From Eubacteriales bacterium (GTDB lineage Bacteria > Bacillota > Clostridia > Oscillospirales > CAG-272), in contig JAZNYH010000049.1 of the NCBI GenBank assembly GCA_045594305.1, positions 1 to 58,057 of the forward strand: 58,057 nt of DNA, in the 5' to 3' direction. Made by a program: the position numbers and the translations under genes. Below the pieces are notes generated by a model. The model was not told where the DNA came from, did not search any database, and was given only the letters and a program-made list of their open reading frames with translations. Positions 11,004 through 51,987 of the stretch are shown in pieces. The stretch's first letter is position 1, and each line of letters begins with the position of its first letter.

Positions 11004-11207
11004 TTATTCGCAAATCTCAAATTCGTCAAGATTTATGCTTGATGTATCCTTTATGTTTCCCTTTGTTCTCTCAAAATAGGATATTTTTTGTCTTGACAAA
11101 AAGACCAAAAGCTTCTCAACGCTCATTCCCTCGCTCCTTGCTACATATGCAAGCTTCTTGGCATCTGCCTCGTTAAATCTAACCTTTATTGTTGCACTCT
11201 TTTTCAT
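11004..11207 (-). CDS. Small ribbon-helix-helix/Arc-like DNA-binding protein
   Basis: N-terminal beta strand (TIKVRF) then two helices (AKKLAYVARSEGMS..); AGGAG RBS. Confidence 0.55.
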   Translation of the reverse strand: MKKSATIKVRFNEADAKKLAYVARSEGMSVEKLLVFLSRQKISYFERTKGNIKDTSSINLDEFEICE

Positions 11208-46129: not shown

Positions 46130-46993
46130 TTATTTTGCCTCATCAAGTATTTCATCAAAGAATTTGCCTTCTCTACGATAGTTCTTACAAATATCGTTAG
46201 CCAAGCGAACGCCCTTTGCTCTGTTTTCCTCACTTCTGTCTTGCAAAAATCTGCGTTCCATATAGGAAATTTCTATTTCCTTTTCAATTCTGATTTCATC
46301 GCAAGCTTTTTCTGTTACTGCAACATACTGCTCACCAAGTTGTAATGCAGACAAGCTTTTAACAAGTGCTAAATCCGTAATGTTACCAAGGAAAAAGTTA
46401 TCAAGTACATAGAACATTTTATCATTTGCTATGCTTCCAACAATAACATCCTTGTCAGCATCCATTTTTCTATACTTATCATAGAATTCTGTGGTATTAA
46501 TTCTTTCCATTCTGCCTCTATGATATGCAACAAGCATTGCCCAATCAATATCGGCTGGAACCTTGAGCATTTTCAATTCATTTGTTTTAATTGATACCAC
46601 ATAAAATGTGGACTTTTCAAAGTCGCAAATCAAGGTAAGTGGTTGTGCTGGGTCTGTTCCCATATAAAAGCCCTTTCCAAAGTCACATTTATCACGGCTT
46701 ATAGGTGCAATTTTGCCTACAATACCCTTTTTGGAGCCGTGATACAATAGAACTCTATCATTTGTAATATTAAGCTCTTTGGCTTCCTTATTCACTCTTG
46801 CTATTGTCATATCATATACTGGAACTTCTTTTTCTTTGCAAAACTCATATAGCTTAATTTGAGCCAATTTATTGGGTACAACTCTTCCATTTTCCCATCT
46901 ATTTACAGTAGCAAATGTAACTCCCAATTTATCAGCAAATTCTGCTTGGCTAAGCCCTAAATATGCTCTTATTTCCTTAATTATCTCTTGCAT
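46130..46993 (-). CDS. XRE HTH fused to a DUF3990-like (ADP-ribosyltransferase-like) domain
   Basis: HTH (LSQAEFADKLGVTFATVNRWENG); LYHGS, DFGKGFY and QYVAVTEKA; GGAGG RBS before ATG 46993. Confidence 0.8.
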   Translation of the reverse strand: MQEIIKEIRAYLGLSQAEFADKLGVTFATVNRWENGRVVPNKLAQIKLYEFCKEKEVPVYDMTIARVNKEAKELNITNDRVLLYHGSKKGIVGKIAPISRDKCDFGKGFYMGTDPAQPLTLICDFEKSTFYVVSIKTNELKMLKVPADIDWAMLVAYHRGRMERINTTEFYDKYRKMDADKDVIVGSIANDKMFYVLDNFFLGNITDLALVKSLSALQLGEQYVAVTEKACDEIRIEKEIEISYMERRFLQDRSEENRAKGVRLANDICKNYRREGKFFDEILDEAK

Positions 46994-47010
46994 ACTAACC
47001 TCCGATTTCA

Positions 47011-47061
47011 TATAACATTGTTTATCAATTTTATTATAGACTATGTTATATTAAATGTCAA
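47011..47061 (-). promoter_or_regulatory. Promoter and inverted-repeat operator of the five-gene operon
   Basis: TTGACA-N17-TATAAT (47061-47033); TATAACAT/ATGTTATA inverted pair at 47011-18 and 47043-50. Confidence 0.72.
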
Positions 47062-47141: not shown

Positions 47142-49955
47142 TTAATCACTAATATTTGTCCAAGTTAATCTATAATATTGAGACGTTAAAAGCTCCACGT
47201 TTAAAGATTGGTCCGTGACATCTATACTAATTGCATCGCCATTATAATCAGTGCCAGTCCAACCCTCAGACTTATAAAACGCAATTGTTTCTAAAGAAGT
47301 GCATCCATAAAATGCTCTTGCATAAATTGTAGTAACTTCTTCTGGTACTTCGAATATAGAATTTGTCTTTCCGATAGCATATCTAATCAATGTTTTTCCA
47401 TCTTTAGTATACAAATTTTTATCAATGGCTTTATATGATTGATTGTTTTCGCTAACCAAGAATTCTTCAATTGGTGCTTCGTCTAACATACCGCCCCAAG
47501 CAAAAACATATATTTCTGTCAGACTAGCTGGTATGCTTATGCTCTTTAACGATGTGCAACCAGAAAAGTTAGGCATAGATATTGTTCCCTCGGGCAATAT
47601 AATTTTGTCAACGCTTGAACAACCTCCGAAAACACTGGTACTTATTACATCAACTTCCTTCGGCAAGCGAATAGTCATAGCAGAAGAACAATTTCCAAAT
47701 GCAAAATGATTTATTTCTCTCACATTATCTGTCAATAAGATTGCTTTAAGTGAACTACAACCATAAAAAGCATATTCTTTTATAGTGGTTACACTGCTAG
47801 GAATTTCAATTTCTTGTAAATATGTATTTTCAAAGAAAGCACTCTCACCGATTGTTTCTACACCATCTGATATTGAAAAGGATGTTTCATTGCCTTTTTG
47901 AACGTATCTTGCAAAGACTGTTCCATCTTTAGAATACAAATGACCATTTAATAATTTGAAGTTTTGATTTTCTGTATCAACTAATATTTCTGTAAGCTTT
48001 ACATCCTTATTGTTTCCTATAAAGTTATTTACAGACTTAGAGAGAGTGATGCTTTTAAGCGAAGTGCATCCAACAAGTTGAGAAATATCAACTTCTGTTA
48101 TTCCATTCGGTAGTTGAAGGCTAACAAGTGACGAGCAACCTGAAAATGCATTTAAAGGCATTGTTCCAATATCACTCGGCAATTCAATATTTTCTAACGA
48201 TATACAATTACAAAAAGCAAGCTCACCTATTTCTAAAACATCTTGACTAATTATCACTCTCTTTATAGATTTGCAACCATAAAAAGCGTAATTGTTTATT
48301 TTTTCGACACCATTTGGAATAACAACTTCTGTAAGCAATTTATTGTCAACATAGAGGTTTACACCAGTGAAAAGAGGGTTTATTGTTTTGTGTGCAAAGT
48401 TAAAGTCTAGCCATTGTTTTACACTACCCACATATACATTTTCAAGTTGTTGTATAAAGGTTGCATTGATAACTTTAAGACTACTTGGTAGCACTAAATC
48501 GCCTACTGTGGTTGTAAAGCTATTTGCAATACCTAAAGTCCCCTCTCTTATGATAATTCTAGAAGCGTCAGAGTCTTCTATTCCTACTGCCCAGTTGCCA
48601 AAATATTCTACTCCATTCTCTATATCAACAGGCTCTGCTCCATAAAGAAATTCAACATTAAGAGTTTTTAAACTGTTTGGTAAAACTACTTCACTTGGTG
48701 TGCTATCATCATAAAAAATGCAAAAATCAGCATTAATTATACCCTCTGGCACAACAATGGAGCTTATTTTCTCTGTGTATGTAGAAAATGTTAAATCAAT
48801 AGATGTAACCTTTTCTCCATTATAATTTGACGGAAATACTATGTGTGGTATCGTTTTTGATATGCTAACAATTTCATATGTTCCGTCTGTCAGTTCTTTA
48901 AAACCAAAAACATCCGAAGAAGTTGACCATTTTGCATACAAATCAACTGTTCCGATTTTTCCAGTAAGTTGTGTAACAGGCTCCTCAAACGCACTATCAA
49001 AATACCATCCCTCAAAGACAATGTACTCGTTAGTTACTGGTGATAAATCTATTACGCTCTCTATGGTGTGTTTCGTAGGATTATCATTGGTATAGTCATA
49101 ACAATTATGATAAATTATATCGTATTCTACGGCTTTCCACTCTGCTGTCAAAGTAATGCTTGAAGATACTGAATACCCTTCAAAAAACCATTTTTCTCCA
49201 TTTAGGTACCAGCCAACAAGTTCATATCCTTCTTTTGTTGGAGTGCTTGGCTTAAGAACATTTGACCCCTTTTCCACCGACTGCGTTGGCACTTCGCTTC
49301 CACCGTTTGAATTAAATGTAACTGTTATCATATTTGGGTTTTCTTCCCATTTTGCATAAAGAATTTTATCCCCAACAGTTCCCACAGATATATTTGATAT
49401 TGGATTATTTAGATTTTCATCAGTAAACCAACCTTTAAAAATGTATCCTTGTTGAGTGGGGTTTAAAAATGTAAAACTCGTTGTAATATTGTAGGACAGA
49501 ATATTGTCACTGTGATTGATTCCACCATTCAAAACATATTCCACTTTGTAATTTATAGGGGTTTTTATCGCAATTACAGTCATATTTCCTTGAATGTCAG
49601 TTAAATCTTTGTCTTCCCAAACGACATCATATCCAGCAATCTTTTTTGGTGTAGGAATATCTGTCAAATCTCTTCCTTTTTCCACTTCTCTTGTCACATC
49701 TGGATAACCATCACCTTGAGAAAAGGTTATTATGTATTTTTCATTTGTTGATGGTATATCGGTATTATCTTGATTGCCACCATTTGTATTGCTATTGCCA
49801 TTTCCTTCATTGGTATCAGTTGTAGAAGAGCCACCATTAGAGCCTTCTATGCTTGAATTATCAGTGTTTCCCGTATTCGCAGCACAAGATATTAATAGCA
49901 TCATTGTGAGAAAGCACAGTACCAATAGCAAAACATTTAAAGTTGTTTTTTTCAT
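47142..49955 (-). CDS. Lipoprotein with InlB B-like repeats and BspA-type LRRs
   Basis: Lipobox-like LLISC; N/S/T/G linker; TFNSNGGS..PTKEGYELVGWY repeats; LRR_5 repeats. Confidence 0.88.
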   Translation of the reverse strand: MKKTTLNVLLLVLCFLTMMLLISCAANTGNTDNSSIEGSNGGSSTTDTNEGNGNSNTNGGNQDNTDIPSTNEKYIITFSQGDGYPDVTREVEKGRDLTDIPTPKKIAGYDVVWEDKDLTDIQGNMTVIAIKTPINYKVEYVLNGGINHSDNILSYNITTSFTFLNPTQQGYIFKGWFTDENLNNPISNISVGTVGDKILYAKWEENPNMITVTFNSNGGSEVPTQSVEKGSNVLKPSTPTKEGYELVGWYLNGEKWFFEGYSVSSSITLTAEWKAVEYDIIYHNCYDYTNDNPTKHTIESVIDLSPVTNEYIVFEGWYFDSAFEEPVTQLTGKIGTVDLYAKWSTSSDVFGFKELTDGTYEIVSISKTIPHIVFPSNYNGEKVTSIDLTFSTYTEKISSIVVPEGIINADFCIFYDDSTPSEVVLPNSLKTLNVEFLYGAEPVDIENGVEYFGNWAVGIEDSDASRIIIREGTLGIANSFTTTVGDLVLPSSLKVINATFIQQLENVYVGSVKQWLDFNFAHKTINPLFTGVNLYVDNKLLTEVVIPNGVEKINNYAFYGCKSIKRVIISQDVLEIGELAFCNCISLENIELPSDIGTMPLNAFSGCSSLVSLQLPNGITEVDISQLVGCTSLKSITLSKSVNNFIGNNKDVKLTEILVDTENQNFKLLNGHLYSKDGTVFARYVQKGNETSFSISDGVETIGESAFFENTYLQEIEIPSSVTTIKEYAFYGCSSLKAILLTDNVREINHFAFGNCSSAMTIRLPKEVDVISTSVFGGCSSVDKIILPEGTISMPNFSGCTSLKSISIPASLTEIYVFAWGGMLDEAPIEEFLVSENNQSYKAIDKNLYTKDGKTLIRYAIGKTNSIFEVPEEVTTIYARAFYGCTSLETIAFYKSEGWTGTDYNGDAISIDVTDQSLNVELLTSQYYRLTWTNISD

Positions 49956-49971
49956 CTTAGCCTCCGTTAAT

Positions 49972-50187
49972 AAAAAAGTGCGTCAACCGAAGTCAACGCA
50001 CCGAAAAATGCAAACCCCGATTGCTGCTACACAAACTGAAACAGAAGAGGGATATACATCCTTTATAATCCTATCCAGTGGAATCTGCACTTTTACCAAA
50101 AGCTCTATTGGATAGGATATGCCAAAAAAGGGTATAATATACCCTATAAAGGAAAATCCGTTCTTTTTATTCAGTTTGTGTAGCAAT
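49972..50187 (-). ncRNA. Predicted structured RNA or leader ending in an intrinsic terminator
   Basis: Nested perfect stems of 16, 9, 10 and 6 bp; upstream TTTACA-N17-TATAAT; cUUCGg terminator plus U6. Confidence 0.6.
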
Positions 50188-50190
50188 GTA

Positions 50191-50219
50191 ATTATAACAT
50201 ACCAAACAAGGTTTGTAAA
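50191..50219 (-). promoter_or_regulatory. Promoter of the structured RNA/lipoprotein
   Basis: TTTACA-N17-TATAAT with a TG element upstream of the -10. Confidence 0.75.
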
Positions 50220-50376
50220 TCCATTTTTAAAAAATGATTTGTCTAATTTTCAATATTATACAGTGTTTTGATGTTAATTTACGCTTTTTAATTAGATAAA
50301 AAGAAAACCCATACGATGAATTTCGTATGGGTTATTCTTGTCGTAATAGGTTCTTCTCTTTTGCACAATTTTTGTA

Positions 50377-50400
50377 AAAGTTGTGTAAAAGTTGTGACAA
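50377..50400. repeat. Integrase arm-type sites, right end
   Basis: AAAGTTGTGTAA plus AAGTTGTGACAA, matching the left-end repeats. Confidence 0.75.
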
Positions 50401-50460
50401 CCTGATTTTTTATCAATTTGTAAAATGCTCTAAACCCTTATGCCATAAGGCTTCGTGGGA

Positions 50461-51987
50461 TTAGTTATCTGCGAGGGGTTTCATTGTTGGGAACAAGAGG
50501 ACATCACGGATGGATGCGCTATCGGTGAGGAGCATTACGAGACGGTCGATGCCGAAGCCGAGGCCTCCTGTTGGGGGCATTGCGTATTCAAGGGCGGTTA
50601 CATAGTCGTAATCTACCTCTGCCTTACTATCTGGCTCCTCTGCAAGCTTTTGTGCTACCTGCTTCTCAAAGCGTTCCTTTTGGTCGATTGGGTCATTAAG
50701 CTCACTAAATGCGTTTCCAAACTCGGTTGCGTTTATAAAGTACTCAAAGCGCTCGGTAAACGCTGGCTCGCTTGGCTTTCTCTTTGCAAGTGGGCTATTC
50801 TCAACTGGGTAGTCGTAAATAAAGGTTGGCTGAATGAGCTTTTCCTCTACATATGCGTCAAAGAGCTCAATAAGAACTCTTCCCTTTGTTGCATCCGCTG
50901 CTACCTCTACATGGAGCTCCTTTGCTACTTGTCTTGCCTCAGCGTCGTCTGCCCAAGCGTAGTAGTCTGCGCCACTATACTTCTTTACAGCCTCTGCCAT
51001 AGTAAGTCTTTCCCAATTGCCCATATCAATCTCTATGCCCTGATAGGTAATCTTTTCAGAGCCACAGATTTTAACTGCAAGAAGCTTATAAAGCTCCTCT
51101 ACAAGGTCCATCATTCCCTTATAATCGGTGAATGCTTGATAAAGCTCAATTGTTGTAAACTCGGGATTATGCTTTGTATCCATTCCCTCGTTTCTAAATA
51201 TTCTACCTACCTCGTAAACTCTATGCATACCACCAACAATAAGACGCTTCAAATAAAGCTCTGTTTCGATACGAAGGTACATATCCATATCGAGGGTGTT
51301 ATGGTGAGTTACGAATGGTCTTGCACTTGCTCCAATTTCAAGTGGAACAAGGATAGGTGTATCTACTTCAAGGAAGCCCTTACCATCAAGGTATGCTCTT
51401 ATCTCTTTAAGAATGAGAGATCTCTTAACGAAGGTGTCCTTAACCTCAGGGTTTACGATAAGGTCAACATATCTTTGTCTATATCTTGTTTCGAGGTCCT
51501 TTAAGCCGTGGAACTTCTCAGGGAGTGGAATGAGTGACTTTGCAAGAAGGGTTGCCTTCTTTACATGGATAGAAATTTCGCCTGTTCTTGTACGGAATAC
51601 TATTCCCTCTACGCCGATAATATCGCCGATATCCCACTTCTTGAATGATGCATAATCATCATCGCCAAGGTCATTTCTCGACACATATAGCTGGATTTGT
51701 CCCTTTTCATCCATAAGATGAGCGAATGACGCCTTACCCATTATACGACGGCTCATCATTCTACCTGCGACGCTTACTACCATTTCCTCGCCACTCTCGG
51801 CAAGCTCACCCTCACGGGCCTCAAACTCCTTGATAGCGTCTGCACTAAGAGCAGTTACATCATACTTTGTAATTTCAAAGGGGTTAGCTCCACTCTCGCA
51901 GAGTGCGCTGAGCTTATCTCGTCTTATTTGCAAAAGCTCGCTAAGCTCTACCTCATTTTCTACATTTGGGTTGTTATTCTCTTGCAT
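50461..51987 (-). CDS. lysS: Lysine-tRNA ligase (class II)
   Basis: VAGR, YRQRYVDL, FRNEG..HNPEFT and GFGIDRL..DVLLFP motifs. Confidence 0.98.
   Translation of the reverse strand: MQENNNPNVENEVELSELLQIRRDKLSALCESGANPFEITKYDVTALSADAIKEFEAREGELAESGEEMVVSVAGRMMSRRIMGKASFAHLMDEKGQIQLYVSRNDLGDDDYASFKKWDIGDIIGVEGIVFRTRTGEISIHVKKATLLAKSLIPLPEKFHGLKDLETRYRQRYVDLIVNPEVKDTFVKRSLILKEIRAYLDGKGFLEVDTPILVPLEIGASARPFVTHHNTLDMDMYLRIETELYLKRLIVGGMHRVYEVGRIFRNEGMDTKHNPEFTTIELYQAFTDYKGMMDLVEELYKLLAVKICGSEKITYQGIEIDMGNWERLTMAEAVKKYSGADYYAWADDAEARQVAKELHVEVAADATKGRVLIELFDAYVEEKLIQPTFIYDYPVENSPLAKRKPSEPAFTERFEYFINATEFGNAFSELNDPIDQKERFEKQVAQKLAEEPDSKAEVDYDYVTALEYAMPPTGGLGFGIDRLVMLLTDSASIRDVLLFPTMKPLADN

Follow-up and report, generated by a model that had tools for sequence, protein, structure and literature searches.

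Human and ruminant gut communities contain Oscillospirales-type Clostridia in abundance, most of them uncultured, and to our knowledge almost nothing has been described about the control of surface and accessory proteins in these bacteria. In other Firmicutes, leader RNAs such as the S-box (SAM-I) riboswitch and the PyrR-controlled pyr attenuators serve as platforms of terminator, antiterminator and anti-antiterminator helices. In the fluoride (crcB), ZTP (pfl) and preQ1 riboswitches, a pseudoknot next to the terminator decides termination. Clostridioides difficile employs c-di-GMP riboswitches and the invertible leader of cwpV. The leader RNA described here lies in a 58,057-nucleotide stretch of DNA that was analysed as a whole (hereafter, the window). 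It would work like these attenuator and pseudoknot platforms but belongs to none of them, every Rfam model having failed on it.

The comparison with each system is instructive. With the SAM-I and pyr leaders, the RNA shares a chain of mutually exclusive helices, the last being an intrinsic terminator shortly before the regulated gene, and an upstream structure that would sequester the antiterminator strand. It differs in that its putative anti-antiterminator is a long-range pseudoknot between a loop and a linker instead of a nested aptamer helix, and in that its antiterminator would pair with the loop and the 3' strand of the terminator, not with the 5' strand. It also lacks the SAM-I and PyrR-site consensus, matches no Rfam model, and appears to control accessory surface genes. 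With the crcB, pfl and preQ1 riboswitches, it shares a long-range pseudoknot involving the segment immediately 5' of the terminator, whose docking or undocking would set termination. However, this pseudoknot is far longer (15-16 bp), sequence and architecture are different, no Rfam match is credible, and 5-13 copies per genome stand before unrelated genes. The C. difficile systems are likewise terminator-bearing leader RNAs that control surface-protein genes in Clostridia, but the leader has neither a GEMM-I nor a GEMM-II match and displays no sign of DNA inversion. The preliminary description of the window, made from the sequence alone, had also called the layout loosely 6S-like. Both RNAs are indeed about 200 nt long and closed by a long helix, but none of the 6S models matches, the inside consists of a three-way junction (in short relatives, a plain hairpin) instead of a central bubble resembling an open promoter, and the relatives are multi-copy and physically coupled to downstream ORFs.

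The flagged stretch is a real folded leader RNA, about 213 nt long, that has a promoter and a terminator of its own (Table 1). Its promoter (TTTACA-17-TATAAT with TG, 50219-50191 on the minus strand) has 11/12 consensus matches in the promoter scan, and transcription probably starts at about 50184 (G). Upstream lies lysS, which encodes a class II lysyl-tRNA synthetase and has its own terminator, and this terminator insulates the leader's own promoter. Downstream, 16 nt separate the last U of the leader's terminator from the ATG of a lipoprotein gene at 49955; the lipoprotein matches the Pfam families LRR_5 (E = 8e-62) and Flg_new (E = 2e-34). The preliminary description had outlined much of this anatomy correctly. 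RNAfold places each of its helices on the minus strand at exactly the coordinates it had given, a promoter and a cUUCGg/U6 terminator do flank the structured RNA, and the G-U pairs that it noted in the terminator exist and make the plus-strand hairpin weaker. The minimum free energy of the leader is -79.4 kcal/mol (z = -6.9), and an equal fold arose in 0/200 shuffles of the minus strand.

Table 1. Features of the leader and its surroundings, listed in the direction of transcription (positions of the window).
Feature	Position	Strand	Detail
lysS terminator	50306..50333	-	upstream lysS gene at 50461-51987
-35 hexamer TTTACA	50214..50219	-	promoter scan
Extended -10 TGTTATAAT	50191..50199	-	promoter scan
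P1, 5' strand UGCUACACAAACUGAA	50170..50185	-	predicted extreme 5' end of the transcript
P2, 5' strand (UCCUUUAUA)	50145..50153	-	9-bp stem with 50067-50059
Pa hairpin GGGUAU-AUU-AUACCC	50130..50144	-	6-bp arm, 50144-50139/50135-50130
P3, 5' strand (AUCCUAUCCA)	50109..50118	-	10-bp arm with 50077-50068
Pseudoknot, apical-loop strand AAAAGUGCAGAUUCC	50080..50094	-	within apical loop 50108-50078
P3, 3' strand	50068..50077	-	RNAfold and pairing of the strands in the family
P2, 3' strand	50059..50067	-	RNAfold and pairing of the strands in the family
P1, 3' strand UUCAGUUUGUGUAGCA	50025..50040	-	pairs with 50185-50170, 16 perfect bp
Putative antiterminator, 5' strand GCAGCAAUCGGGG	50015..50027	-	covers the pivot and the final three bases of P1
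Pseudoknot, linker strand GGGGUUUGCAUUUUU	50004..50018	-	pairs with 50094-50080
Intrinsic terminator	49972..50002	-	stem 50002-49992/49987-49977, UUCG loop 49991-49988, U6 49977-49972
Shine-Dalgarno GGAGG	49961..49965	-	sequence; belongs to the downstream gene
Predicted controlled gene, 937-aa lipoprotein	47142..49955	-	signal peptide ending LISC; BspA-type LRR and Listeria-Bacteroides repeats

The surroundings hold several minor features. Between the lysS stop codon and the leader promoter, a stretch rich in hairpins contains a tandem ACAACUUUUAC repeat and is followed by the lysS terminator. A match to the Rfam trpB motif at 50295-50391 (-) was rejected, since its 34.5 bits (E = 0.006) fall short of the gathering score of 59 and the lysS terminator contributes most of its score. 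The gene that follows the lipoprotein gene (46130-47011, minus strand) encodes a 293-aa protein with HTH_3 and DUF3990 domains.

The leader is one member of an RNA family that is widespread among uncultured Clostridia of the gut and rumen and has no entry in Rfam. When the whole window was scanned with Rfam 15 (4227 models) at gathering thresholds, only a tRNA was found and no family was assigned to the leader; a scan of 49800-50500 at E up to 10 returned nothing credible on it, and a scan of 18 other family members at E up to 0.01 returned nothing on the element. The preliminary description, which named an Rfam match as the result that would speak against novelty, had recognised no T-box or riboswitch consensus, and neither the T-box nor the riboswitch models matched. 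A T-box leader can be rejected in particular: RF00230 does not match, the downstream genes are of the surface and accessory kind, and lysS lies upstream, not downstream. A full-text literature search retrieved no description of the family, which may yet be an unnamed cluster in one of the large catalogues.

In many genomes BLAST recovered full-length relatives, frequently more than one in the same genome; identity was 66-75% over query positions 32-262, and conservation was strongest in the 3' part. From 19 members, the window copy included, the covariance model R1 was built, so that the 177 bits scored by the window copy follow by construction. R1 matched 151/401 sampled genomes of the same order (69/179 genera) and 107/399 sampled genomes of the same class (53/217 genera), the latter in many families beyond the order. 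An exact-pattern scan of species-representative genomes gave at least 120 stretches with the family pattern. All of the matches listed come from uncultured metagenome-assembled genomes of deer, goat, sheep, yak, cattle, rabbit and human guts, labelled Oscillospiraceae, Acutalibacteraceae, Ruminococcus sp., Faecousia or 'Clostridia/Eubacteriales bacterium'. Under thorough scoring, eleven other genomes carry 5-13 copies each and the window's genome carries one, in agreement with the single copy found in its 1.85-Mb assembly. A pattern scan of this genome for a second linker or loop sequence gave only chance-like matches in coding DNA. A short repeated motif of the same genome, ..UUAGCGAAAAnCCG..AAAU..AGCGACACAAAC.., at C3:~11020-11033 (-) and C8:~3590 (+), is unrelated to the leader.

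Underneath a variable interior, the members share one anatomy. A -35 element with at least 4/6 matches stands at the same spacing in 155/195 members, a -10 element with at least 5/6 matches occurs in 172/195, and its TG extension in 171/195. In 164/195 members exactly 5 nt separate the -10 hexamer from the first P1 base, and the RNA should therefore begin with P1. The sequence of P1 itself is conserved (GCCAAACAAA or GCUACACAAA) and is followed by an AAUAA-type bulge. Two types of interior are found. Members of the long type (about 190-230 nt), to which the window copy belongs, contain P2, the module GGGAUAnnUAUACCC-U6 and P3; in the window this module corresponds to Pa, with the conserved U6 next to it at 50129-50124. 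Members of the short type (155-170 nt) have one long hairpin in place of this interior, with neither the three-way junction nor the Pa module. The apex is always UUUGGUAAAAAYGCAAAUUCC or a variant of it. After P1 follow the linker GACAAUCGGRGUUUGCGUUUUU, where conservation in the family is highest, and a terminator whose loop reads CUUCGG. A Shine-Dalgarno sequence and a start codon in the same direction lie within 250 nt of the U-tract in 167/200 members, at a median distance of 26 nt, too short for a second promoter.

The genes behind these leaders are heterogeneous, accessory or surface-related, and have no common metabolic, transporter or enzyme theme. Among 144 downstream proteins scanned, Pfam identified zinc ribbons (13), BspA-type LRRs (5), collagen repeats (4), trypsin-like proteases (3), GLUG (3) and SHOCT (3), and the majority had no Pfam match. 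By a crude test, about 69% of 167 downstream proteins have a signal peptide, lipobox or membrane segment; the remainder include small Cys-rich peptides and XRE-type regulators.

Covariation among homologs, which the preliminary description had named as a check on its reading, is strong. It was assessed on a model-based alignment of 104 members (A3) that had been picked without use of the linker pattern. The 11-pair core of P1 is paired in 98.9% of alignment cells, with compensatory changes at 8/11 pairs, and the terminator in 98.5%, with changes at 9/10 pairs. The pseudoknot falls into an A-run half (98.1% paired, compensatory changes at 1/7 pairs) and a second half (94.7%, 7/8 pairs). Taken jointly, P1, pseudoknot and terminator are 96.9% paired, compared with 36-51% in slid controls, and 0/500 shuffles reach the observed value. 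P2 and P3 are too variable for sequence alignment, with a strand identity of only 33-38% (33% for P3). Cognate strands of P2 nevertheless have a median pairing energy of -15.5 kcal/mol versus -7.1 for non-cognate strands, and those of P3 -16.7 versus -6.1 kcal/mol, an advantage of about 9-10 kcal/mol. Furthermore, the z-score of the interior fold is below -2 in 104/104 members (median -5.5, mononucleotide shuffles).

The pseudoknot and the antiterminator deserve separate attention. The consensus of the pseudoknot pairs CGCAAAUUCC with GGRGUUUGCG, and covariants pair GUAGUGCCCC with GGGGUUCUAC, CGCGGCUCC with GGAGUCUCGCG and CAAGUUCC with GGAGCUUG; the pair 152-315, which is GC in 34 members and AU in 27, lengthens it further. 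In the window all 15/15 bp form between 50094-50080 and 50018-50004, with a duplex energy of -16.3 kcal/mol (family median -16.2). The antiterminator is paired in 82% of A3 cells in its 5' half (compensatory changes at 3/8 pairs) and 97% in its 3' half (3/5 pairs). Its two main subfamilies pair ACAAUCGG with CGGUUGG or ACUAUCGG with CGGUAGC, and in each the 5' strand of the terminator changes in step. Exchanges of AU to UA and of GC to AU are matched in both partner strands; for example, the pair 293-341 is AU in 51 members and UA in 36. This covariation follows two or three subfamilies, and because several positions change together with subfamily identity (mutual information), it represents few independent events. 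In the window, the antiterminator joins 50027-50015 to the loop and 3' strand of the terminator (49992-49980), with 11/13 positions paired and two mismatches. The two helices overlap by only 4 nt, the first four bases of the linker strand (GGGG, 50018-50015), which are the pivot common to both. This GGRG of the family is needed by both helices: in the pseudoknot it pairs with UUCC of the apical loop, in the antiterminator with CUUC of the terminator loop. The pseudoknot is therefore read as an anti-antiterminator.

The leader of the BspA-type lipoprotein mRNA is therefore likely to be a cis-acting transcription attenuator in which the pseudoknot plays that part. The novel attenuator proposed in the preliminary description accords with the absence of an Rfam family, a terminator directly before the Shine-Dalgarno sequence, covariation among homologs and a conserved cis arrangement with the downstream gene, but that proposal was incomplete, since the multi-copy family, the 15-bp pseudoknot and the competing antiterminator had been missed. 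The attenuator may operate as follows. A strong sigma-A-type promoter would start the RNA at the first base of P1, and the folded RNA would consist of P1, P2 and a junction from which the Pa hairpin and P3 branch, P3 presenting the conserved apical loop. The conserved linker would emerge after P1, followed by the stable terminator just before the Shine-Dalgarno sequence, and would have the choice of two partners through its common GGGG. In the OFF state, the linker would be held by the apical loop in the 15-bp pseudoknot, the terminator would form, and a terminated RNA of about 213 nt would be released. In the ON state, the linker would instead pair with the terminator loop (CUUC) and 3' strand, and polymerase would read into the gene. 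The antiterminator could nucleate on the terminator loop before the terminator's 3' strand has been made: the loop is transcribed ahead of the 3' strand, so that a free GGRG could nucleate the antiterminator early and a pseudoknot-locked GGRG could not. Access to the apical loop would thus set the outcome, and its controller, if there is one, could be a ligand, an ion, a protein, an RNA or transcription speed.

The energies bear on the resting state of this switch. Family medians are -16.8 kcal/mol for the terminator and -10.9 for the antiterminator; in the window copy the values are -15.3 and about -8 (-8.2) kcal/mol, respectively. The window's terminator is thus about 7 kcal/mol more stable than its antiterminator, which in addition is mismatched, and this copy may therefore terminate constitutively unless a factor helps. 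The default state is probably OFF.

What, then, might tip the balance? A tentative answer within the attenuator reading is a protein or trans-acting RNA that acts across a multi-gene regulon by binding P1 with its AAUAA bulge, the apical loop or the 5' strand of the terminator. Such a factor would explain why P1 and the loop are conserved in sequence even though P1 is paired, why many copies per genome precede unrelated genes, and how an antiterminator that is weaker than the terminator on its own could prevail. Against it, no protein or RNA emerged as a candidate, none of the neighbouring genes is consistently a regulator, and neither the linker nor the loop sequence recurred when the genome of the window was scanned. 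A true riboswitch, in which the P1-P2-Pa-P3 junction binds a small molecule or ion and so sets first the pseudoknot and then the terminator, is unlikely. It would fit the conserved unpaired bases at the junction of long-type members (AAUAA, GGGAUAnnUAUACCC, U6), the layout of a pseudoknot next to a terminator as in known riboswitches, and the near balance of terminator and antiterminator in many members. However, the short relatives retain loop, linker and terminator without the junction, which argues against a common aptamer, and the controlled genes are a mixed set of accessory and surface genes in which neither transporters nor enzymes form a theme. The missing junction and the mixed gene content speak against a classical metabolite aptamer and leave control by an ion, a protein, an RNA or kinetics. 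A leader peptide was also considered, but the mini-ORF that begins with GUG in the terminator's 5' strand is not conserved between subtypes.

It is conceivable, if speculative, that the family is a hitherto undescribed kind of RNA switch that responds to a global cellular signal, whether as an orphan riboswitch or as a kinetic pseudoknot switch complete in itself. If so, the signal might be an ion, a nucleotide second messenger or transcription speed, and a portable cassette of promoter plus leader would bring accessory genes, most of them for the cell surface and as many as a dozen or more in one genome, under common control in several orders of gut and rumen Clostridia. A single RNA family stands before BspA-type LRR proteins, lipoproteins, zinc-ribbon membrane proteins and small Cys-rich peptides, and its presence in about a quarter to a third of the sampled genomes points to a large, unstudied regulon. 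Discovery of the trigger would show which signal serves as a global one in these bacteria. Because pseudoknot and antiterminator compete for one GGRG, the three-helix logic is directly testable in vitro, and the leader could serve as a compact regulatory part.

Transcript data address the possibility that the element is an independent sRNA gene, whose terminated RNA of about 213 nt acts in trans and whose downstream gene is a neighbour expressed by leak-through. The window's organism was found in no RNA run searched, and one metatranscriptome contained only the conserved 3' domains of paralogs. The leader of a relative (L012:1356-1564) is expressed: metatranscriptome contigs (Logan) from three runs cover the leader alone, with neither flanks nor downstream ORF. 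These contigs fit a short terminated RNA, but their ends coincide with words common to paralogs and are therefore no proof of a 3' end at the U-tract. The leader-only contigs of the relative, a stable terminator and the bounding of the element by promoter and terminator are what an sRNA gene would have in its favour. It is nevertheless improbable, given the same-direction ribosome-binding site and start codon that so regularly follow the family's members at short distance and a conserved antiterminator pairing that would have no obvious use in a stand-alone sRNA.

The inner helices of the leader are perfect palindromes, so that its plus strand yields an equally good fold (z = -9.6), and folding alone therefore fixes neither the strand nor the RNA nature of the element. 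The family settles this point: G-U pairs make up 8-17% of helix cells and A-C at most 1%, which fixes the strand and excludes a DNA palindrome. The window locus is present almost unchanged in contigs of four independent gut metagenomes, where the differences inside the leader are confined to one hairpin-loop base and one extra U in the U-tract. A DNA-level element, that is, a MITE or an invertible (phase-variation) segment with the 16-bp inverted repeats as its boundaries, is accordingly very improbable and largely refuted: perfect repeats do flank about 130 bp, both strands fold and the family is multi-copy in other genomes, but pairing is strand-specific with G-U common and A-C nearly absent, the helices covary among unrelated sequences rather than near-identical copies, orientation is fixed relative to promoter, terminator and gene, no aligned member has its interior in reverse orientation, the four metagenomes contain no strand-switch joints, and the element is single-copy in its own genome.

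Several observations on individual members complete the picture of the family. A 7.7-kb contig classed as viral (IMGVR_UViG_3300010346_002427) carries a member at L252:3653-3857 (-) with 92 bits, and the cassette thus occurs on phage-like DNA too. In L056, L065, L100, L124, L193 and L186, two leader cassettes stand in tandem or a few kb apart, each before its own small gene. A fluoride riboswitch (RF01734, 46 bits) at L247:1781-1867 (+) lies about 125 nt from a short-type member, on the opposite strand. In addition, the leaders L021, L130, L173, L186, L195 and L099 are followed by a conserved small Cys-rich protein of 56-140 aa that has no Pfam match and carries the motif ..TGIELTPGxPxxCLGNGEQGFECCCDECDY...
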